A stretch of DNA of 64,000 nt from a virus. Taxonomy: Duplodnaviria; Heunggongvirae; Uroviricota; Caudoviricetes. Location: positions 361,787-425,786 of the IMG/VR virus record IMGVR_UViG_3300015214_000024; one strand, 5' to 3'. Numbering within the stretch: the first letter of the stretch is position 1; each line of letters starts with the position of its first letter. A program made the translations under genes and the position numbers. The notes below the pieces were generated by a model. The model saw only the letters and a program-made list of their open reading frames with translations, had not been told where the DNA came from and did not search any database. Of the stretch, positions 15,227 through 61,715 are shown one piece after another.

Positions 15227-15892
15227 TTATGGTTGAGTTTCTTCCTCTTCAGGCGGAGGTGGCGGATCTTCAACAGTGATGTAAATACATTTGGTTTCAG
15301 CAGTTTGACCACGCAACGTAATAATTGTATAACTAAAAGCATCAGCGCCAGTGTAGCCCGGATTGGGTACGTAAATTATACTCTTGCGATCGTCAGACAT
15401 CCTAGCAAAACCATTATATGGTTGAGTGCATATTACCGGTTCACACCAAGTAGCCGCATACGTTTCCTCATCTGTCGGTGCCAAGGTTTCGCCACCAAAT
15501 ATATTATCGATGGTGATAATATACTCATCAGGAACAAACGGCTGTATAGTTTGATCACATATCACTTTGATTTCGGCAGCAACTGGTTGATTGAAAGTGA
15601 TTAGCTGATCTTCAATCTCATAAGTTAACTGTGGCGGGTTCAAGTGTGTCTCGCCAAAGTCTGTACTTCTGTTAATTATCCTTATACCATCTTTATAAAT
15701 CTCTACCATTTCAGCACTTGGTATTTTCCAAGGCACTTGTAATTGAGATGTCAATGCCATTTGATAGGTAAAAGATAGTTCACCGCGACTTAAAATCTGT
15801 TTAAATGTATCACTAGTTTGATTGACCGGTACTGTAATTTCCATATCATCAATAGGTGGAATTATTGTACGGCAATTATTAATATTAATCAT
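15227..15892 (-). CDS. Structural protein with C-terminal Ig-like (Big_9-type) domain
   Basis: YVPNPGYTGADAFSYTI motif; start set at ATG 15892 (TAATG overlap). Confidence 0.7.
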   Translation of the reverse strand: MININNCRTIIPPIDDMEITVPVNQTSDTFKQILSRGELSFTYQMALTSQLQVPWKIPSAEMVEIYKDGIRIINRSTDFGETHLNPPQLTYEIEDQLITFNQPVAAEIKVICDQTIQPFVPDEYIITIDNIFGGETLAPTDEETYAATWCEPVICTQPYNGFARMSDDRKSIIYVPNPGYTGADAFSYTIITLRGQTAETKCIYITVEDPPPPPEEEETQP

Positions 15893-50564: not shown

Positions 50565-51410
50565 TTATGCCAATCCGGCGTAGAGGTGTTGCTGAAGATT
50601 GTACGTTAGACCATTATTTACACAATAATTGGCAGTATATTCGTGATTGATCTGATTGGACTTCATATCCAACAACCCTTCTTCCCAAAAGGAAATAACT
50701 TCATCAACATTTGATCGTTCACCAATCTTGATATTATCAGTAGAATATTCCTCATCAAATTTACGAGGAAATTTATTATAGATATTCATCGGGCTTACGA
50801 AAATCTGCCTACCAGTTTTATCTCTCCACTCAAAAGCCCATTCTGGTATTGAAGAATATGGCGAATCTTTATCAGCAGACATAACAAATTTTAAACAATT
50901 AGCTCGTTCTAATGTTTCAGCCCTTGGCGTTAAGTATCTAACTGGGGCACCACTCTTTTCAAGACATTTTGGGCTCACTACCAAGCAAGTCTCTTCTGGG
51001 ATTTCTGTGAAAACCGTACCATTACTTTCAATTTGAGAATATCTAAATTCCTTATTTACAGCATCAAGTAATTGCTTAATGTTCTTCTGCAACATTGGTT
51101 CGCCGCCAGAAAGCACAAATACTGCTTCTTTCTTTTCACCAGCCATATAAGGAGGAACAAAACCACCAAAGTGATCTACAATTGCAGAATTTACTTCTTT
51201 CATCAATTCATCAACAGTAAACCAATCACCATTATCAAAATAAGTATCACAAAAGCTACAAGCAAGATTGCACTTAGCAAGTCTGACGAAAAAAGCAGGA
51301 TATCCACGATATGGCCCCTCGCCTTGTAATGTCATAAATCGACTTACCACCATCAAATCGTCTCGGCCATTGAAGAACTTCTGACCAACTATGGAATTTT
51401 TACCGAACAC
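50565..51410 (-). CDS. queE: QueE-like radical SAM CDG synthase
   Basis: TLQGEGP..G.PA.FVRL..CNL.C.FCDT, SGGEPMLQ, IESNG, VSPK, QQH. Confidence 0.9.
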   Translation of the reverse strand: MFGKNSIVGQKFFNGRDDLMVVSRFMTLQGEGPYRGYPAFFVRLAKCNLACSFCDTYFDNGDWFTVDELMKEVNSAIVDHFGGFVPPYMAGEKKEAVFVLSGGEPMLQKNIKQLLDAVNKEFRYSQIESNGTVFTEIPEETCLVVSPKCLEKSGAPVRYLTPRAETLERANCLKFVMSADKDSPYSSIPEWAFEWRDKTGRQIFVSPMNIYNKFPRKFDEEYSTDNIKIGERSNVDEVISFWEEGLLDMKSNQINHEYTANYCVNNGLTYNLQQHLYAGLA

Positions 51411-52062
51411 GTTTATAACTTCCTTTTTTAAAATATCGACCTTTACTATAGCCTAAATCTATGTAAAAATCAATTTCTTCTTTTGTAATTTTCTTGTTAA
51501 TGCCGTCTTTAGTAATCCAGCATTTTCCGTAATTTGAATTCTTTTCGCCCATTCCACCAAGAGCAATATTTGCTCGGTGTTGATCGGTAAATTTCATTCC
51601 AGTCCGGGCATTAGAAATTTTCTGTCTAGTTTCTTCTGAACGGTTCTTACCTTTATGCCAATTTGACTTACCTTTATGGGTTGCAGATATTTTTGCTCTG
51701 GCTTCATCAGTATGAGTTTTTCCACGCATACCATTATTATCAATTATCTTTTGCCGAGTTTTTTCCGAAAGAGGTATGCCTTTTTGTTTTTGGCCAGATC
51801 CAACGGGACAAACATTATAGCACTGCGGATTTGGTATCTTTAAATCTGAAATTAGTTTCGACTCTGCCAGCAATGCATCATTTTCAGTTTCGAATACAAA
51901 CAAAATTTCTTTAGTGAAATTTTGTTTGCCATATTTTTTAATAGCACGAGTTATTCGAGTGCCAGATCCTAAATATAAATCATTAATATTTTCTGTAGAA
52001 TGTTTACCAATATAAAACATACCATTTAATTGATTTATCGTTTTATAAACTATATGATACAT
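51400..52062 (-). CDS. GIY-YIG homing endonuclease with NUMOD3 repeats (Seg-like)
   Basis: IVYKT.N..NGMFYIGKHST, YLGSG, YN; SEKTRQKI / TDEARAKIS / SEETRQKIS repeats. Confidence 0.9.
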   Translation of the reverse strand: MYHIVYKTINQLNGMFYIGKHSTENINDLYLGSGTRITRAIKKYGKQNFTKEILFVFETENDALLAESKLISDLKIPNPQCYNVCPVGSGQKQKGIPLSEKTRQKIIDNNGMRGKTHTDEARAKISATHKGKSNWHKGKNRSEETRQKISNARTGMKFTDQHRANIALGGMGEKNSNYGKCWITKDGINKKITKEEIDFYIDLGYSKGRYFKKGSYKRVR

Positions 52063-52067
52063 ATATC

Positions 52068-52625
52068 TCAAATCAAACAAAATTTAAAATCAAGCAACCC
52101 ACATTCTTTGCTACGAAAAATTTGACCGTCGCGTTCCATAATAACCAATGCACCAATTGTTATATATCTTGATTGTCCAATATTAGACGATATTTCAGAT
52201 ACTAATAACGATTTACTTGGTGATTTTACTAATTCATTCTTAATAGACTGAATTGATCTTTCCATATCCATCTTATCAAATTTTTTGAATGGAAAATCCG
52301 TTGTAAAAATTTCTATTTTTACTGATAACGAAAATGGTCCTGATGATAATGTCTTATGATAATTTATCCATCCATAATTATGTAGAATATTCAAGCATTT
52401 TACAACATCGGCATAATTAATTTTTAATAATTTAGCTATATCTTCATCAATTACTTGACCTAAATTTTTGCCTACAACTTCTTTACCTAGAAAATATTTA
52501 ATTTTTTCCATATTTGACCAACGGCGATAATCAGTTGAAATTTGATTTCTAATCCATTCAGAAAGATTATTGAAGCCATAATCAGCAATTCTCCCTGTAA
52601 TCCACCCAATAAACCATTCTAACAT
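52068..52625 (-). CDS. Hypothetical protein, possible tandem winged-helix
   Basis: IAKLLKINYADV..CL..L...GWI and EISSNIG...L..MERDG.I patterns; promoter TTGAAA-17-TATAGT at 52649-52677. Confidence 0.5.
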   Translation of the reverse strand: MLEWFIGWITGRIADYGFNNLSEWIRNQISTDYRRWSNMEKIKYFLGKEVVGKNLGQVIDEDIAKLLKINYADVVKCLNILHNYGWINYHKTLSSGPFSLSVKIEIFTTDFPFKKFDKMDMERSIQSIKNELVKSPSKSLLVSEISSNIGQSRYITIGALVIMERDGQIFRSKECGLLDFKFCLI

Positions 52626-52997: not shown

Positions 52998-53294
52998 TTA
53001 TTTCACCATTGCCATAGCTGTTTCAATTGTTGCCCATAGTTCTTTTATCTGCGGATCAGTGCTTGCTTGAATAAATTTTTCAGTATGTTCGCGCAGGCCA
53101 CTGAGAACGTGGGCCATACCACACGCTATCCAAAACAACTCCGTTTTTGCATCAGCAATTTGAGTCGCCTTTTCAAGCAAATAATCTTCGATTCTTTCGC
53201 CAGTATTGATATCACGTTCTAATGCAAGATTGTCATATGTAACACTATCCAATCGATCTATTAATTTATCAAGCTCTTTCTGATATTCGTCCAC
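52998..53294 (-). CDS. Hypothetical coiled-coil protein
   Basis: GTG start overlapping upstream TAG; ends DPQIKELWATIETAMAMVK. Confidence 0.6.
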   Translation of the reverse strand: MDEYQKELDKLIDRLDSVTYDNLALERDINTGERIEDYLLEKATQIADAKTELFWIACGMAHVLSGLREHTEKFIQASTDPQIKELWATIETAMAMVK

Positions 53295-53752
53295 TATTCT
53301 TTTTCCCACGGATAAACAAGCCAAATTGGATCAATTGCCTTGTTTATCTCAACTGCATAAAAATCTGGTTTGAACAATGTTTCACCACTGTTAAAATGGA
53401 GACAAACAGACGTAGCGGTTAATAAAAATCGAGCCGACTGATCAGCTAAAGCATCGTATATTTGATGCAAAGTTTCACCACTATCACATATATCATCTAC
53501 AAAAAGCACTCTCTTTTTATAAATTGCTTTTGCGACATCTATCGGAAGTTCTTCCGGAGGCTGGCCATCACGAGTTTGCCAATTTAAACAAACTAAAGGA
53601 AGTCCTAAATGATGACTGAGTTCAACAGCAGGTACTAGGCCGCCGCGGGCGATCCCGACGACTACATCATAGTCGTCGGAATTAAGCATTGACTCCAGTT
53701 TAGTAATATCCTGGCCAAAATCTGACCAAGAGTAGTAAACTTTTGTTGTCAC
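53294..53752 (-). CDS. Type I phosphoribosyltransferase (Gpt-like)
   Basis: GIARGGLVPA, PRPP loop VLFVDDICDSGET, WLVYPWE. Confidence 0.88.
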   Translation of the reverse strand: MTTKVYYSWSDFGQDITKLESMLNSDDYDVVVGIARGGLVPAVELSHHLGLPLVCLNWQTRDGQPPEELPIDVAKAIYKKRVLFVDDICDSGETLHQIYDALADQSARFLLTATSVCLHFNSGETLFKPDFYAVEINKAIDPIWLVYPWEKE

Positions 53753-54462
53753 GAGTTATAACCTTTCATACCAGCCAAAAGCTTGTAGAATTCATCCTTA
53801 AGGGCCGCGTCGTCACGGAATTTACCACGCATAATAGCAGTAGTCATATCTGACTCGTGTTCACGGACACCACGATGTGTCATACAGTGATGTTCTGCCT
53901 TCAAAACAACAGCAACGTTTGGCGTTTCAGCAAACTTTTCCAATTCGTCAGCAATTTGAGTAGTCATTTCTTCTTGAATCTGTGGACGTTCAGCAATCCA
54001 ATGAACCAATCGATTAAACTTGGATAGTCCAATAACCTTTTCTTCAGGGAAGATTCCTACCCAACAACGTCCAACAATATTCTGGAAATGGTGTGCGCAA
54101 GTGCTGCGAATACTAATTGGTCCAGCAGTATAAACATTCTCATATCCAATGTTTGGAAATGCTGTAATCTTTGGTGCTGGAACATATCTACCACCAAATG
54201 TTTCACGCAAGAACATTTTAGCAACTCTGCGAGCAGTATCTTGGGTATTGTGATCGTTTTCTGTGTCAATAACCAAAGTTTCCAAAACTTCTTGGAATTT
54301 TGCAGTTAGTTCATCTTGAAGAAGATCCATTTCACCAGTATTGATATACTCTGAAATGTTTTTATTTGAAACAAACTCGCCGCCTGCTTCAACAATACGT
54401 TGTCTAATCTGTTTGGAAATTGGGAGTGGGGTTGATCCGCAGCAATCGTTATTATTTGTCAT
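53749..54462 (-). CDS. folE: GTP cyclohydrolase I
   Basis: T..RVAKM, STCAHH, GLSKFNR, PQIQE, AEHHCM..RG. Confidence 0.95.
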   Translation of the reverse strand: MTNNNDCCGSTPLPISKQIRQRIVEAGGEFVSNKNISEYINTGEMDLLQDELTAKFQEVLETLVIDTENDHNTQDTARRVAKMFLRETFGGRYVPAPKITAFPNIGYENVYTAGPISIRSTCAHHFQNIVGRCWVGIFPEEKVIGLSKFNRLVHWIAERPQIQEEMTTQIADELEKFAETPNVAVVLKAEHHCMTHRGVREHESDMTTAIMRGKFRDDAALKDEFYKLLAGMKGYNS

Positions 54463-54600: not shown

Positions 54601-55674
54601 TCATCCAACTAATCTGTTATACATATCAACTGGATTGATTGCGTTTTTTATAATTTCAAATCTTTGATCATAATCTTCCATATGAACATCATAATTTCTG
54701 ACGTAATCAACTATAATATCAACCAATTTATCTCTATGTGGCAAGTATGCATCAAAGCTTGTAGTCCATTCGCTTGGATATACATTTTGTGGCAAATGGA
54801 ATTCTGGATAACAGGCGCGGTTTGGTACAAGTGGTATAGCACCACACAAAACGCTTTCCATCATTCCAATGCCAAAATTCTCGTGAAGAGAACAGCTAAA
54901 TGTTACCTTTGACCTACTAAGCAAATCGTAATACTCATCTTTATTTAGATTTTCTTCCTGGGTCATTACGCCACGAATATCTGATGGTAAATGATCTCTT
55001 AAATCTCTAAAAATCTCTGGTATTTTGTCTTCATTCAATCGATGAGTGAATAAAACAACATTTTCCTTTGGAAGGCTTTTGCGATATGCTAAATTCTCCA
55101 AATAATTCATTGGCAATCCAACTGTGACTACTCTATGATGATGCTCTTCAGGTATATTTAGATTTTTCAAAAATAAATTACGATTAAAGTCTGATGCAAC
55201 ATAAACTGCATCACAAGCATAAAACCAAGCACGTTCTTGATTATGTGACCAATCTTTGCCCATTTTCATACCAAGTATGTCTGACGGGTCATACGCACCG
55301 GCGTGGCAGATTGAGTAAATTTCAATCTTGATCCCTGACAGCTCTGCCATATAGCGCAGAGCCGTGATACCAAAATGCCACAAATCTGTTACGAGGAATC
55401 GATCACCGGATTTAATATATCCTTCCTGGAACAATTTAGCAATCCGTTCAATCTGTGATGATTTATAAGCATTTGTGTGAAAGAAATCCAAAAAAGCACC
55501 AGTTGAGACTTTATCATTTCCTTGAATACCATTCGTGCCAACAGTAGCAATATTAAAATTACTACCAATCAGATCTTTATAGTATTCTAATTGGTTTGGT
55601 ATTTCAGTGTACCATTGTTTAGTATATCGAGCATCTATTGGCTCGAGCTCAACAATCCAGCAAGTATTTGCCAT
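54601..55674 (-). CDS. GT-B fold (GT4-like) glycosyltransferase
   Basis: FTHRL..DK, Ex7E motif ENFGIGMME, GAIPLVP...YPE; start moved to ATG 55674 after AAGGA. Confidence 0.8.
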   Translation of the reverse strand: MANTCWIVELEPIDARYTKQWYTEIPNQLEYYKDLIGSNFNIATVGTNGIQGNDKVSTGAFLDFFHTNAYKSSQIERIAKLFQEGYIKSGDRFLVTDLWHFGITALRYMAELSGIKIEIYSICHAGAYDPSDILGMKMGKDWSHNQERAWFYACDAVYVASDFNRNLFLKNLNIPEEHHHRVVTVGLPMNYLENLAYRKSLPKENVVLFTHRLNEDKIPEIFRDLRDHLPSDIRGVMTQEENLNKDEYYDLLSRSKVTFSCSLHENFGIGMMESVLCGAIPLVPNRACYPEFHLPQNVYPSEWTTSFDAYLPHRDKLVDIIVDYVRNYDVHMEDYDQRFEIIKNAINPVDMYNRLVG

Positions 55675-55675
55675 T

Positions 55676-56071
55676 TTATTTTCCTTGTATGACTGGTTGG
55701 AAGAAAAGGGTTGCGCCGTTTTCTCCGTCTTCCGAAACCGTAATGTTAAATGCCCGGTTTGGGTATTTTTGTGAAATTTCACCCGCAAGGTCCTCTGCAA
55801 TCATTTCGCAGCTTTTATAATCAAGCTGCAAAGTTTCCATTGAATACAAACGCTCCAACCAGCGCTTGAATTGTATAAATTCAATATCCCGGTCGTTATG
55901 CACGACATCAATTTCCACCCTAAAGTGGAAAATATGACGATGAGGAACTCCTAAAAAGCTTACATCGTCCCAATCACCAGTTGCCAATTTTGGGTCAGTA
56001 TCTGCACCTGGATACTTGTGAATACCTTCCTTCTGGAAGGTAACAAATATTGTTCTTTTTGTAACTATCAC
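55676..56071 (-). CDS. queD: QueD-like (PTPS-fold) protein
   Basis: GIH, HRHIFHF, DRDIEF, SCEMIA, VSEDGENGA; cluster context. Confidence 0.72.
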   Translation of the reverse strand: MIVTKRTIFVTFQKEGIHKYPGADTDPKLATGDWDDVSFLGVPHRHIFHFRVEIDVVHNDRDIEFIQFKRWLERLYSMETLQLDYKSCEMIAEDLAGEISQKYPNRAFNITVSEDGENGATLFFQPVIQGK

Positions 56072-56075
56072 GCTA

Positions 56076-58124
56076 TTATCCTTCATCAAATAAATCATCA
56101 AAGCTGATTTCCTGAATCACTGATGGTTCAGTGTCTTGATTTTCATCTTCAACTTCATTATCTTCAACTACATTATATAACTCATCTTCATCTTCATCAA
56201 TATATTGTGACGATTCAACTGAATTGACTTCTGCAGGCGTCATACCAAGAACATTGTTAAGAGCTTCCATATTGTCAGCCATTACTTTTGGATCAAACTT
56301 GCTGCGAATAATTTCTTCAATAGCAGCTTTACCTTCAATCATTTTCATTGGCAAATTAGTCTTAGCAACTTCAGGATTTGGATCAGTGTAATACTTTAAT
56401 CCGGTTTGAATTCCTTTAATGTGCTGTTCAACATTCATATTCATAATTGCTGAATAGCCCATTTCATCCCAAAGTGACTGCTCTTTGTAATTTCCTGCAT
56501 CAAGGCGAGCTTTAAACTGTTCTTCAGTTTCTTCTTTTTTCTTTTTAGTAGGTTTACCGTCACGATAGCAAACATCACCTACTGTGATCATTTTACCCAA
56601 TGTGGTATCATCGTGGGTTGAATAGGTTTGTTTGTCACCAATATATTGGAAAGTGAAATTTTCCCACAACTCACCACTTCTGTTTTCTGACAAATGTGAA
56701 AACATCCTACTAAGTTCCTTAGCATTCTTGTCTGGCATCACATCCATTCTAAATGCCATTTTTTGATTGTTAACTATGAAGTTACTATATCCTTTACCTT
56801 TAGCAGTGCAAAGAAATGGTGAAGCAGCATCATAAGTAACAATAAAATTAGGATTGATTTCTTTTCGTATCTCTTGTTGAATAGTAGTGTAAAGCAATCC
56901 AGCATTAATTCTACTAATACCAAGAAAATGCATTAACAATGGAACATCATCGCGAAGCTTGCCACCTTGGGATTGAGTCGTCAAAAATCCTTCATCATAC
57001 ATTATTTTTAAACGCTTCATTAACATCTGAAAGTCAAACTTCAAGTTGCCTGGGATAGCCCATCCTTCAAATGCTCGATCTCCAATAGGATTCCCTTCAA
57101 AATCGAGGGCGTTTGGATCATTGAATTTCTTGACAGCTTCCCACCAAATATCGCCTTCGCCTTGCTTTAGGCGCTTTGTTTCATTACCCTGGTCATCAGT
57201 ATAGTATTCATAATCAAGTTGCATCTGATTATCAAATACCATTATGTTTCGACCTTGTAGAACATTAAGGAATTTAGTTTCACCAACAGTTCGGTGCTTG
57301 ATGAAATATTCACAATTCCATTTAGTATGTTCCAAACAGTCATCAAACATTACACCACTATTTGGCAATTTAAAATTCGCAGTAATGTATTGACCATAAG
57401 TTTGTTTTAATATTGGGTTGTCTTTCTTACCCATATCATCATAAAAACAAACACCTGGATTGGATTCAATCAGTTTTTTAACATCATTTATCTTTGATGT
57501 TTTTTGCTTATCATCCAATGACGAATCATTGTTAATATTGGCAATAAGTGAGTTCAAAGCAACGGTATTTTCAGGAAGAGCATTAAAGTTTTTCTTGAAA
57601 ATGATGGATTTTGTATTAGTGATTGAGGTCGTTGGAATATCCAAGATCATACTATAATCAGCACTATGCTCCAACCACTTCATAATCTTATGACGAAGAC
57701 CTTTCGTATCAATGGTTAAATCATCAATAGCACCAGTTGATAGCTTGCCTTTCAAAACACCAGTACTCAACTGGTATCCACCAGAGTCGCCAACAATCAA
57801 TGTAGCTGTTCGATCTCTAGAGTGGAATACACGTTCTTTATCCTGGCCTTTTTTAATATCCAACTCAGCGTGTCCTGCTGAATACAATGCCCAAGGATAC
57901 CAAAAAACATTAGTATTAGCATTTAGGAAGTCAAAGTCGTCAAATGAATTCAAACCCACAGGGATATTACCATCCCTGAGGTTTTTCTTACTCAAACTTT
58001 TTGTATAAAAGCTGCTAATGCTTGGCAGGAAGATAGCCGCATCTTGGTTACCCGTCAAATACTCTGTAGCATTAGGGCCTTTTTTATTTTTTAATAAATC
58101 AGAAATGTCCAGTCTATCGGCCAC
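56076..58124 (-). CDS. dpdA: DpdA-like (TGT-fold) DNA guanine transglycosylase
   Basis: GDSGGYQL, MILDIP, LNVLQG, EGWA, HFLG, TYDAASP match TGT-family strand motifs; adjacent to queD/folE. Confidence 0.75.
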   Translation of the reverse strand: MADRLDISDLLKNKKGPNATEYLTGNQDAAIFLPSISSFYTKSLSKKNLRDGNIPVGLNSFDDFDFLNANTNVFWYPWALYSAGHAELDIKKGQDKERVFHSRDRTATLIVGDSGGYQLSTGVLKGKLSTGAIDDLTIDTKGLRHKIMKWLEHSADYSMILDIPTTSITNTKSIIFKKNFNALPENTVALNSLIANINNDSSLDDKQKTSKINDVKKLIESNPGVCFYDDMGKKDNPILKQTYGQYITANFKLPNSGVMFDDCLEHTKWNCEYFIKHRTVGETKFLNVLQGRNIMVFDNQMQLDYEYYTDDQGNETKRLKQGEGDIWWEAVKKFNDPNALDFEGNPIGDRAFEGWAIPGNLKFDFQMLMKRLKIMYDEGFLTTQSQGGKLRDDVPLLMHFLGISRINAGLLYTTIQQEIRKEINPNFIVTYDAASPFLCTAKGKGYSNFIVNNQKMAFRMDVMPDKNAKELSRMFSHLSENRSGELWENFTFQYIGDKQTYSTHDDTTLGKMITVGDVCYRDGKPTKKKKEETEEQFKARLDAGNYKEQSLWDEMGYSAIMNMNVEQHIKGIQTGLKYYTDPNPEVAKTNLPMKMIEGKAAIEEIIRSKFDPKVMADNMEALNNVLGMTPAEVNSVESSQYIDEDEDELYNVVEDNEVEDENQDTEPSVIQEISFDDLFDEG

Positions 58125-58141
58125 GTGTCTTTATCCTTTTA

Positions 58142-58951
58142 TTATTGTTGGCGTGGTGGGATAGTAAATTCGTACTGTGCAATACCAGTTTCAATGGTAA
58201 TTTTTAACATACCACGATCACTAAATCCAATGCTTAGTGTAGCATTTGATGCCAATTTAAGCAATTTATTAACCTGATTAATGTCCCAGGACCAAGTATT
58301 TTTTAATACACCTTGAACGTCTTGGTGGAATTCGATAGTTGATTCGTTTCCAACTTCACCCAAGTTAATGAACAAACTGTCATTACCATTTGATCCTTCT
58401 TGAATCTTGACTTAGAACACATCACCATTTGATACAGATACCATCTTGTCCAAATATTCAATCGCAGCCGCAGTTGGCGTGAATTCCACTGCATAATCAA
58501 CTGCTTTTGGTGAAAACTGTTGTGGGATCAAATTACGAGCAATAACTCGGAAATTGTTTTCCATCTTAAATGGCTTAGCTTTACTGAATACAAATTTCTC
58601 AATTGCATCTTCTTCAGTTTCTTCAAACTCAGGAGTTCCAGCAGAATCCAAAATTGGATTACCATCAGCATCTTTCTTTTCAATACGTACCTTACGTGCT
58701 TTACGAGCAACAGTCACAACGTCTGCTGGATCTTGATACAAGTTCAATATTGACGCAAGACGGTCCAAATTACCAATGCCGCTTACACCATCAAAGCTTT
58801 CATCTTCTGCCAACACGTTGCCCTTAAGGATAATGGTTCGACCATCATCAACGCCTTGGAAAGTAACCTTACCTTCCTCACCAGTAATCTTTACGGTACC
58901 GATGTCAGCAGCCCTAACAATCTTTACCAAATCTCTTAAAATATCACGCAT
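58142..58951 (-). CDS. gp45: Sliding clamp (gp45-like) interrupted by in-frame TAA at 58412-58414
   Basis: Track ORFs 58412..58951 and 58142..58375 share one frame: NGDVF*VKIQEGSNGNDSLFINLGE; 269 codons; GIGNL..L..IL and FSD.GML.IT.ETG...YEF.IP; follows DNA polymerase. Confidence 0.65.
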
Positions 58952-59015
58952 TAATTTTCTCCATTAATTCTTATCTATTATTAACACACTTAGACCAATT
59001 AAATCAATATTATTA

Positions 59016-61715
59016 TCAGTCAAACGAAAATAAATCTTCAAACGTTTCTTTAGATGCTTTAGTAGCACTAAAGTTATACCCAAGAACACCAAAAATATTG
59101 GATAACTTCTTGTCCAAGAGAGCCTCTTCCATTGCTTTATGGTCAAACGGAAGATCTTGGAACCAGTCAGGAAGATGAGTTTGATCCACAGGATATGCAA
59201 TACTCGTTAATCCTAATGGGTTGTCCATTAGTTTACAAACCATAACTTTCATACCATCAGTGATTTCATTACTATAATGATCGTCAAACCGCTTCTTCAT
59301 ATTATTCCAATTCATCGCAGCTCGAACGTGGCCAGGCATATTAACTTTGCCAGTTTGTTCTTCTCTTGCCACATATCCAGTAATACCATTTGCACCTTTT
59401 GGTGATCCCTTCTTCCAACCTGGCCATTCTCTAAATTCCATTCGGAAATTGTCAACGAATTCATAAATTTCTTCATCATCCGTACCATCCAGGACCTTCA
59501 TCAAAACCTCAGTTAAGAAATTTTGAATGACCTTTGGGGTATCTGATCTCTTGATTTCAATACCAAGTGCCTTCAACTTACCAGGCTTACCATCAATATC
59601 AACACGCTTACCGTCAATATCATAGCATAGAGCTGCATATCTCTTCTTCTTAAGATACATACCACGTTCAGCCAAAATTTCCCGGCCAGCAGCAATAATT
59701 GCTCCTCTTTCTAAGCTGGTATTAAACCTGAACCTCATAAATTCTGGGAAACTTTCGTTCACCAAATCTGCAATATTGTCATAAAGCTCAGCAACAGTTT
59801 CCTTATTCCATTCATAATGATCTTTAAGCACAGGATATGCGCTAAAATAACAAGAGTCAGTATCACCATAAACAATTGCCGGACCGTTGTGGTTATAATC
59901 ACCAGCAATATATTCATTAATTTTACTCATCATATGGCGAGTAATATTACGCCCAGTCAACGTTGTACTTTGACCCATTCTCTGATCATAATATCGGCAA
60001 TATTGATTCAAAAGAGCACCATATAGTGAATTTAGAAGAATCTTCTTAATCAACTGACGCTTGTCATAGAATGCAATCTTTTCCTGGATTTCAGCTAACT
60101 CTTCCTTTGAAGCTTTACGATCGCGAGCCTTATCCATCTCTTTGATCCATTTCTTCATTTCAGCTTGAAGTTGCTTACGCTCAGCATACCATCGAGCTAA
60201 TAGCCCCGGTATGATACCATCACTATCAGTTCTAAACAATGTACCGTTAGCTGATATACACATTCCTGAATCAGGAGCAAATATTGTTTCATACCATTCA
60301 CGGGCAGACTGTGTTATCGTTTGACCGTTTTCCAATTCAACTGTCAAAATTGTTGTAGTGCATTCCATCACTTCTTCAAATTCAATCACATTGAATAATT
60401 CACCCCAAGCATCAGACAATGTCGCATTTTTATTTGATGCAATATAATTCCTAATGAACTGTTCAGTAAGGGGAAGTTGGAATTGACCAATAATGGTTTC
60501 AGGACTGATATTTAGGGCTCGAATCGCTGACGGATACAGTGAGTTAATATCAACTGACCCAATCCATTGGTGCATACCTACTCTTGGATCTGCAACATAA
60601 GCACCAGCAACTGATTCACCAGATTCGCCTTCTTTTCGGCCCTTCTTTCTTGGAGCGACCAAGCCCTTACTATGAACTTCAATATTAATTGCTTGCTCAA
60701 TAAGCGCCACAGAACCTGACGTTTTTGTGATCAAAACAGTGTTTTCGTGAGCCAATTGATTTGAAAGATCAATATATTGGTTCTTGGCGTCAATTTTTAC
60801 AATAAGCATAACGTCCTGTCTGTTATATTCAACAAACGTTTTGAAATCTTTTTTGTAAAGTTGATCTAACGAACCTTCATAAGCCGTTTTACGTTCTTTA
60901 ACCTCAACTTCGCCCACGTTATCCAAGGAATAACTGTGAAGCTCATTATAGGTGTATTTTTTATACAGATCCAAATAATCTAAATGTATTCGACCGACTA
61001 ATTCATATGTTAGTTGAGTCTTACCATACATTTCAAATCGACGTTCGCTTGGATATTGGTTCCAAAGACAAAAACGTTTAGTTTTTTCTTTCTTAGAAAC
61101 AAATTCAATTCGCTTAATAATGTATGGAATATCGAATGTAGTTGAGTTCCACCCAGTTAAAACGTCAGCATCTTCAATCGCAGTAAAAAAGTGATCAAAA
61201 AGTTCATCTTCTGTTTTACAAAGAATAGTATCCTCAAATTGATCAGTGATCTTTTTTGCTTCCATAAAAGTCAATGTCGGTGGACCAATGACGTATGTTA
61301 ATAGTTTACCAGTCCAATTCTGGTAAACAGTTATTGCAGTAATTTTGCCGTGAGGATCTTCTGGTGAACTAAAACCACGCTTTGGATCAAAGTCCACCTC
61401 AATATCGAGGAATCCAATGTTTAGATTTGGTGCTTCACAACCTAAGTAATTTTCTTCTAAATGTCGTGTAATCGCGTCATAGTCATCTTCAAATAAGTTA
61501 TATTCAGATACTGATTGGCGCTCTTTTTGGAATTCTTTATAATTATTTGATTCGTATTTGATTAATTTATCACCATACATTGAATCAAAAGAACCCTTTT
61601 TACTCTTTGCGTAAAAGCGATATAATGCTGGTGTTTTTTTGAAAATTCGTTGACCATTAATTCTTTCAACGACGTGTAGGGTATCTGCGATTTTAATCGC
61701 ATCGACATAAGTCAT
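59016..61715 (-). CDS. gp43: Family B DNA polymerase (gp43-like)
   Basis: Exo DIE, GWNS..FDIPY, YN.QD; Pol DINSLYPS, K..LNSLYG, YGDTDS, KKRY. Confidence 0.97.
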   Translation of the reverse strand: MTYVDAIKIADTLHVVERINGQRIFKKTPALYRFYAKSKKGSFDSMYGDKLIKYESNNYKEFQKERQSVSEYNLFEDDYDAITRHLEENYLGCEAPNLNIGFLDIEVDFDPKRGFSSPEDPHGKITAITVYQNWTGKLLTYVIGPPTLTFMEAKKITDQFEDTILCKTEDELFDHFFTAIEDADVLTGWNSTTFDIPYIIKRIEFVSKKEKTKRFCLWNQYPSERRFEMYGKTQLTYELVGRIHLDYLDLYKKYTYNELHSYSLDNVGEVEVKERKTAYEGSLDQLYKKDFKTFVEYNRQDVMLIVKIDAKNQYIDLSNQLAHENTVLITKTSGSVALIEQAINIEVHSKGLVAPRKKGRKEGESGESVAGAYVADPRVGMHQWIGSVDINSLYPSAIRALNISPETIIGQFQLPLTEQFIRNYIASNKNATLSDAWGELFNVIEFEEVMECTTTILTVELENGQTITQSAREWYETIFAPDSGMCISANGTLFRTDSDGIIPGLLARWYAERKQLQAEMKKWIKEMDKARDRKASKEELAEIQEKIAFYDKRQLIKKILLNSLYGALLNQYCRYYDQRMGQSTTLTGRNITRHMMSKINEYIAGDYNHNGPAIVYGDTDSCYFSAYPVLKDHYEWNKETVAELYDNIADLVNESFPEFMRFRFNTSLERGAIIAAGREILAERGMYLKKKRYAALCYDIDGKRVDIDGKPGKLKALGIEIKRSDTPKVIQNFLTEVLMKVLDGTDDEEIYEFVDNFRMEFREWPGWKKGSPKGANGITGYVAREEQTGKVNMPGHVRAAMNWNNMKKRFDDHYSNEITDGMKVMVCKLMDNPLGLTSIAYPVDQTHLPDWFQDLPFDHKAMEEALLDKKLSNIFGVLGYNFSATKASKETFEDLFSFD

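Follow-up and report, generated by a model that had tools for sequence, protein, structure and literature searches.

The window analyzed here is a 64,000-nucleotide stretch (positions 361787-425786) of the 455,147-bp virus record IMGVR_UViG_3300015214_000024, which belongs to the Caudoviricetes. The record is rated 100% complete, has 39% G+C and carries approximately 69 tRNA genes, and is thus the genome of a jumbo phage. On the minus strand lie, in order, a gene for a family B DNA polymerase, a 269-codon open reading frame (ORF) resembling a sliding clamp gene and a 682-residue ORF for a DpdA-like enzyme, followed by a QueD paralog, a putative glycosyltransferase, FolE, a phosphoribosyltransferase and, further along, a QueE-like radical S-adenosylmethionine (SAM) enzyme (Table 1). 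The initial annotation of this stretch had read the first three genes in the same order, which the ORF coordinates bear out. It had also pointed to a short C-terminal motif shared by the polymerase and the DpdA-like protein, and proposed from it that a base-exchange enzyme rides the phage clamp. Here we examine this shared peptide, the identity of the proteins concerned, and how well such a tether accounts for the evidence.

The polymerase ends in ...KETFEDLFSFD and the DpdA-like protein in ...EISFDDLFDEG, so that both fit [ST]F[DE]DLF, as had been described. They also share the [ST]-hydrophobic-[DE]-x-L-F pattern of the C-terminus of T4 gp43 (...EKASLDFLFG, with SLDFLF in the corresponding positions). 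A search for F[DE][DE]LF within the last 20 residues, made over the 2586 ORFs of 40 residues or more in the whole genome, returned only these two proteins, as did a looser search for F..LF within the last 12 residues of ORFs of at least 80 residues. No further convincing terminal motif was found in a crude non-overlapping set of 682 genes of this genome. By these counts the match of the two endings is more than chance. In a model of the DpdA-like protein computed with AlphaFold2 (AF2), the predicted local distance difference test score (pLDDT) falls below 50 over residues 632-674; the approximately 43-residue acidic linker in front of the motif is thus predicted to be disordered, in keeping with the initial annotation. 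A short helix is predicted at residues 675-679, the FDDLF itself. Nine relatives of the protein (71-100% identity) have 50-residue tails that are just 42-52% identical, yet all of them retain F, L and F at the motif positions. The invariance of F-x-x-L-F amid diverging linkers shows selection on the motif. An invariant Y and an EV are also kept inside the linker by close relatives of the window protein.

The comparison was extended to 84 loci, comprising 80 from IMG/VR and four others. The order polymerase, clamp and DpdA-like gene on one strand is found in 74 of them. Polymerases of related loci carry F..[LM]F in their last 16 residues in 62 of 66 cases, with the consensus NTFxxLF[DSE]F[E]. 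Among 76 non-redundant phage homologs of the DpdA-like protein, 47 (62%) contain F..[LM]F within their final 90 residues, with the consensus NTF[NG][NS]LF[DE], compared to 10 of 733 (1.4%) neighboring co-oriented ORFs. A bare [LM]F in the last 60 residues is likewise found in 64 of the 76 DpdA-like proteins, compared to 157 of the 733 neighbors. The position of the motif varies by clade, being at the very end in some and 30-40 residues upstream in others, where it is followed by an acidic element of the DDDELxxLE type. Many DpdA-like homologs show this second acidic element after TFxxLF in the form ...DFxxPDDDELxxLE... or ...DE[KS]KLDxLE... (for example L004:10001-11539 and L006:11995-13617). 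Some polymerase genes in this set are split. In phage PA5oct (L006:5605-10831) a Hef-like homing endonuclease gene divides the polymerase gene into two ORFs, and split polymerases are also seen in the metagenomic loci L017, L020, L030, L031 and L035. The C-terminal polymerase part, the clamp and the DpdA-like protein of PA5oct are EST35_0313, EST35_0314 and EST35_0316, and the tail of the last contains ...NSFNSLFDVD....

Homologs of the DpdA-like protein in bacterial and archaeal genome assemblies (GTDB) provide a contrast by gene context. Of 8 loci with a polymerase or clamp gene nearby, all in fact phage contigs, 6 carry the motif, compared to 1 of 67 loci with neither gene within 10 kb; the single carrier among the 67 lies on a 2.7-kb contig too short to show its neighbors. 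By this contrast the tail goes with the phage replication module. A comparison of the motif between homologs with and without a clamp had been put forward as a check on the proposed tether, and its outcome agrees with that proposal, in that the motif is conserved in phage homologs beside polymerase and clamp and absent from clamp-less cellular ones.

Three of the 10 matches among the neighboring ORFs, which had served as controls, are themselves terminal or near-terminal peptides of the STFxxLF type within the same gene clusters. Two are on a family of approximately 190-residue proteins and one is on an unrelated 193-residue protein. A third, unrelated carrier of the motif in these clusters is as expected of a shared docking code, and the approximately 190-residue family may be an additional client that docks at this site. 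Members of this family that end in STFxxLF are encoded 2-4 kb downstream of the DpdA-like gene (L063:11557-12141, L028:8038-8589 and L029:12454-13005). The family gave no Pfam or PHROG match and has no homolog in the genome of the window; it has a D...E-x-K-like signature (...GWEVKCRK...), from which a nuclease fold can be guessed only.

No match to the DpdA-like protein was found in Pfam, in PHROGs or by a sequence-profile search of the Protein Data Bank (PDB), and its label in the initial annotation therefore needed testing. The AF2 model, built with 60 homologs, has a pLDDT of 88.8 and a predicted template modeling (TM) score of 0.88. In a Foldseek search of the PDB with this model, the best 50 matches were all to the tRNA-guanine transglycosylase (TGT) of Zymomonas mobilis (probability 1.00, E about 2e-4). 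Their TM scores, normalized to the target, are approximately 0.45-0.5, reduced by the large insertions in the DpdA-like protein. Alignment with hhalign to E. coli Tgt (probability 78%, 194 columns) places GDSGGYQ, MILDIPT and TYDAASP opposite TDSGGFQ, MIFDECT and MFDCVMP, the motifs that hold the catalytic, substrate-binding and nucleophile aspartates. Residues D113, S114, G116, Q118, D162, H399 and D432 are invariant in the 60 homologs. As to the zinc site of TGT (CxCxxC...H), the conserved columns show no CxCxxC block, with only H399 invariant and C263 nearly so. Because of the TGT fold, the aligned and invariant aspartate motifs, and the FolE, QueE, phosphoribosyltransferase and DpdL-like neighbors described below, the 682-residue protein is, as judged from its sequence and model, a TGT/DpdA-superfamily enzyme in a 7-deazaguanine cluster, and the label given by the initial annotation can be kept.

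The family to which this enzyme belongs is large: of 8000 candidates scored, 2530 proteins have E values of 0.001 or less, and the family has 495 representatives at 50% identity. Among isolated phages, tblastn found the protein only in PA5oct-like phages, Sinorhizobium phage Phosso, a Vibrio jumbo phage and Pseudomonas putida phages; in the PA5oct-like phages, Phosso and the Vibrio phage it is annotated merely as "hypothetical". Membership in DpdA3 was considered and rejected, as the family profile had no match in the record of Campylobacter phage CP220 and hhalign to CGPG_00065 of phage phiST (259 residues) gave a probability of 58% over 83 columns. Tail-less homologs are common in Alphaproteobacteria such as Rhizobium, Sphingomonas and Novosphingobium (L095:9953-11401 and 66 other genome-assembly loci). 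The Rhizobium copy adjoins an integrase gene and a gene for a SIR2-NACHT protein, and so lies in a mobile or defense island.

Several signals, individually weak yet consistent, point to the 269-codon ORF as a probable sliding clamp of the gp45/PCNA type: profile matches, Foldseek matches, the position after the polymerase gene and the presence of a gp44-like clamp loader. The ORF belongs to a clamp-like family of 3835 homologs. The best three matches in a profile search of the PDB were the clamps of RB69, T4 and another phage, all below threshold (E 0.17-0.29). The gp45 C-terminal domain, PF09116 (gp45-slide_C), was matched by 2 of 35 family members, with a best E value of 0.006, and it occurs in 10% of the members of a neighboring cluster in the Atlas. 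In PHROGs the ORF matched only phrog_12062, of unknown function, and hhalign of the family with the single sequence of T4 gp45 gave a probability of 32% over 33 columns. An AF2 model of the monomer was poor (pLDDT 46.5), too poor for use as a structure, and only the identity of its Foldseek matches was considered: the best 50 were all of the PCNA type (PCNA or 9-1-1), with probabilities of 0.69-0.99. Where the gene order is kept (74 of 84 loci), the clamp gene directly follows the polymerase gene with a median gap of 63 bp. The clamp loader similar to gp44 is encoded elsewhere in the genome (G000:C1:146665-147369, E 1.6e-27), and no other clamp was found in the genome with PF09116 or with PF02768, a DnaN domain. 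The clamp identity assumed by the initial annotation is thus probable, although no single sequence signal is strong.

In the genome of the window this ORF contains an in-frame TAA, where 12 intact relatives of 268-269 residues have Ser or Thr. A single change, TCA to TAA, would be sufficient to produce the stop, which may be a true nonsense allele or stem from an error in sequencing. Among the approximately 69 tRNAs of the genome, none was found with a TTA anticodon (an ochre suppressor).

A structure prediction of the clamp trimer with the tail had been suggested at the outset as a check. We used three copies of an intact clamp (P0121, 98% identical to that of the window) together with residues 633-682 of the DpdA-like protein. 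The interface score (ipSAE) was 0.41 (0.40-0.44 among runs), compared to 0.00 for the best of three controls in which an unrelated protein replaced the clamp, and the result was rated as "weak support". At least 75% of contacts were common to the runs, with a partner pLDDT of at least 52. In calibration, 58 of 80 solved complexes and 2 of 110 mismatched pairs passed the mark; only 7 of those 80, but both of the passing mismatches, did so with scores of 0.60 or below. Since solved clamp-peptide complexes exist, the score may in part reflect likeness to known structures.

Table 1. Features of the polymerase, clamp and DpdA-like genes and of the adjoining modification cluster (coordinates are those of the window).
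Feature	Position	Strand	Evidence
Family B DNA polymerase, T4 gp43-like, 899 residues	59016..61715	-	Pfam DNA_pol_B 9e-30, DNA_pol_B_exo1 3.8e-18; phrog_262 DNA polymerase 1.3e-202
Polymerase C-terminal peptide KETFEDLFSFD, presumed clamp-binding tail	59019..59051 (TFEDLF = 59028-59045)	-	Sequence
Probable PCNA/gp45-like sliding clamp gene, 269 codons, in-frame TAA	58142..58951 (TAA 58412-58414)	-	Weak profile matches, context
DpdA-like ORF, complete, 682 residues	56076..58124	-	ORF listing
DpdA-like catalytic body, residues 1-631, TGT-type barrel with large insertions	56232..58124	-	AF2, Foldseek, hhalign
DpdA-like acidic linker, predicted disordered, residues 632-673	56106..56231	-	pLDDT < 50
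DpdA-like C-terminal peptide SFDDLFDEG, residues 674-682, candidate clamp-docking motif	56079..56105 (FDDLF = 56088-56102)	-	Sequence, conservation
DpdL-like QueD paralog, proposed 7-carboxy-7-deazaguanine (CDG) decarboxylase	55676..56101	-	LGVPHRHIF; phrog_17812 1.1e-35; 36% identity to phiST CGPG_00067 (DpdL)
Putative glycosyltransferase	54601..55800	-	Pfam Glycos_transf_1 5e-4 (below cut-off); phrog_4356 glycosyltransferase 6.2e-6
GTP cyclohydrolase I (FolE)	53749..54462	-	Pfam 1.1e-46
Phosphoribosyltransferase	53294..53752	-	Pfam Pribosyltran 2.2e-18
QueE-like radical SAM enzyme (7-carboxy-7-deazaguanine synthase)	50565..51410	-	Pfam Radical_SAM 2.6e-8

The genes for FolE, the QueE-like enzyme, the phosphoribosyltransferase and the DpdL-like protein all lie within 6 kb of the DpdA-like gene. 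A similar association with 7-deazaguanine genes is found in the loci L001, L004 and L005, in one related contig and in PA5oct, where the gene syntenic to the QueE-like gene is annotated as 7-carboxy-7-deazaguanine synthase. DpdL, a proposed 7-carboxy-7-deazaguanine decarboxylase, is recognized by the signature LxxxHRHxF (PMC10516641), and LGVPHRHIF in the QueD paralog fits this signature. With a DpdL-like gene as neighbor, the inserted base is probably 7-deazaguanine itself or a derivative. The glycosyltransferase gene inside the cluster makes a sugar-bearing base possible as well; the C-terminus of its product (...NPVDMYNRLVG) shows no clamp-type motif.

Other features of the cluster and genome may be recorded here. 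The listed start of the QueD paralog overlaps the codons of the DpdA-like tail. Between the QueE-like gene and the genes upstream of it, within the modification cluster, is an ORF at 51400-52080 (minus strand) whose translation resembles a homing endonuclease of the GIY-YIG type. Outside the window, ARAGORN predicted two amber-reading tRNAs (anticodon CTA) and one whose anticodon has four bases (ctta), at 15281-15358, 165512-165586 and 183179-183254 of the whole genome.

The best reading of these observations, and in our judgment a reasonably probable one, is that a new DpdA-like subfamily carries a clamp-docking peptide that tethers the enzyme to the phage clamp. The 682-residue enzyme would insert a 7-deazaguanine base into phage DNA in exchange for guanine. 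Its last nine residues, borne on the acidic linker of about 43 residues, would fold into a short hydrophobic helix like the one expected of the peptide that ends the polymerase, and both peptides would most likely dock in the same pocket of the PCNA/gp45-like clamp encoded between them. The enzyme would thereby stay on clamps set by the phage clamp loader at replication forks, or left by it behind them, and would carry out base exchange on newly synthesized duplex. The analysis shows the fold, the catalytic residues, the motif with its conservation, and the co-occurrence of the motif with the polymerase-clamp module; physical binding, any gain in efficiency or processivity, and a restriction of modification to phage DNA are what we infer from them. 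The proposal in the initial annotation that the enzyme rides the clamp is in part upheld, namely by the peptide shared with the polymerase, by its likeness to SLDFLF of T4 and by its conservation in the context of the replication genes; the lack of the motif in some phage clades does not fit it.

Several observations weigh against a clamp tether. The clamp assignment draws on sequence signals that are weak and on a monomer model of low confidence, and the TAA breaks the clamp ORF of this genome. The complex was predicted once, with a score in the range of "weak support" and no interface reported. The motif is retained in the polymerases but missing from the DpdA-like proteins of L053, of the L005 clade and of the clade whose tails read "...TGMDADN...[VM]D[FI]xx[IF]". 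In many homologs that have it, it lies 30-40 residues from the end and is followed by the second acidic motif, so that the tail may have roles beyond clamp docking. The two peptides of one genome do not co-vary significantly beyond their consensus: the observed number of identical variable positions was 1.95, compared to 1.73 +/- 0.13 after shuffling, and 329 of 5000 shuffles reached the observed value. For this reason we claim a shared consensus and not co-evolution. Finally, in T4, clamp binding by alpha-glucosyltransferase is reported not to be the main determinant of the level of modification (PMC13216743).

The shared peptide might instead dock both proteins to another partner, such as the host beta clamp (DnaN), a helicase, a single-stranded DNA-binding protein or the clamp loader, in which case modification would still be coupled to replication. 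Motifs such as QFNALFE and TFGSLFE resemble those of bacterial beta-clamp clients, whose consensus QL[SD]LF also ends in LF, and the weak identification of the phage clamp, its interrupted ORF and the modest complex score would all sit comfortably with a different partner. The phage, however, encodes its own clamp loader; the motif tracks the phage polymerase-clamp module and is missing from cellular homologs; and the control predictions, in which an unrelated protein replaced the clamp, gave 0.00. Moreover, the polymerase is gp43-like, and T4 gp43 uses such a tail to bind gp45 (PMC6212786). We therefore regard another partner as unlikely.

A tail that has nothing to do with replication would be a degron, an autoinhibitory or DNA-mimicking acidic segment with a hydrophobic cap, or a tag for packaging or localization, its likeness to the polymerase being convergent or due to local recombination. 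The strong acidity of the tails, the additional elements conserved in them (Y and EV among close relatives, DDDELxxLE in others), the clades without the motif and, in the L005 clade, which is one of these, a ClpP-family protease gene (L005:7547-8155) between the clamp and DpdA-like genes can all be cited in its favor. It is difficult to reconcile with the recurrence of the same consensus, including the flanking N-T, in polymerase and DpdA-like proteins of distant lineages, or with the strict co-occurrence of the motif with the polymerase and clamp genes and its great rarity in other neighboring proteins, and we judge it distinctly unlikely. As the motif is just five to six residues long, a functionless chance resemblance of two C-termini has also to be considered. 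It would have to account for a motif found in 2 of 2586 ORFs, invariant amid diverging linkers, enriched among the phage homologs relative to their neighbors and divided so sharply by gene context in the genome assemblies; it is already contradicted by these conservation statistics and is very improbable.

A bolder version of the tether to the phage clamp can be offered tentatively, and we think it rather doubtful as a whole. NTFxxLF may be a general replisome address label in a large clade of jumbo phages, which would put a base-exchange enzyme, and in some lineages further proteins such as the approximately 190-residue family, on the clamp and would allow near-complete, phage-specific replacement of guanine by a 7-deazaguanine base immediately behind the fork. 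In that case modification described as "post-replicative" would in practice be co-replicative. If a clamp tether operates, the docking peptide would offer a concrete mechanism for the speed, completeness and self-targeting of guanine replacement, and the list of clamp clients would be extended to a base-exchange enzyme. Independently of mechanism, the analysis marks out a large DpdA-like family that was unannotated, has no Pfam model and occurs in isolated phages such as PA5oct. The DNA of PA5oct, which bears a homolog, withstands restriction enzymes whose sites contain G and is attacked by nucleases that recognize modified G (PMC12191111); in this phage the modification matters both for evasion of restriction and for targeting by END nucleases.

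The closest known parallel for the peptide is the set of T4 proteins that bind gp45. The tail of gp43 mediates gp45 binding, gp33, gp55 and T4 ligase are further clients, and an internal LDFLF loop of the ligase, forming a short amphipathic helix, attaches to gp45 with a dissociation constant of about 11 uM (PMC6212786). The DpdA-like tail is similar in being a short hydrophobic peptide, predicted to be helical, on a flexible segment and of the same type as the end of the cognate polymerase; an adjacent clamp gene and a gp44-like loader are also present. It differs in belonging to a transglycosylase rather than to a polymerase, ligase or transcription factor, and its motif is internal to the tail in many homologs; the clamp here is too diverged for recognition by Pfam, and binding is a prediction.

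A precedent for a phage modification enzyme on a clamp, which the initial annotation did not mention, is T4 alpha-glucosyltransferase, which co-purifies with gp45 (Sommer et al. 2004, cited and confirmed in PMC13216743). It too is a DNA-modifying enzyme associated with the phage clamp, and has been proposed to act on DNA as replication proceeds. Its reaction is the transfer of sugar to hydroxymethylcytosine, in contrast to the exchange of a whole base here, and no polymerase-like terminal peptide is named for it in the available text of that paper.

Known transglycosylases that place 7-deazaguanines in DNA are bacterial DpdA (bDpdA) and the phage enzymes DpdA1-DpdA4, as listed in PMC6884629 and PMC10516641. 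Phages with DpdA3 replace all of their guanine; the insertion is called post-replicative, and the available text of PMC10516641 gives no mechanism for complete replacement. Like these enzymes, the protein described here is a TGT-superfamily member encoded with FolE, QueE and a DpdL-like gene. It differs in size and architecture, belonging to a family of 500-680 residues with insertions and a tail, compared to 259 residues for DpdA3 of phiST. Our text searches of the literature yielded no publication that connects a DpdA with a clamp. In eukaryotes, DNMT1 and UNG2 are tethered to PCNA through PIP boxes and are thus recruited to newly replicated DNA. These are unrelated, cellular enzymes with a different motif, the PIP box, and the likeness is one of function: a base-modifying or base-editing enzyme would in each case be recruited through a short clamp-binding peptide.

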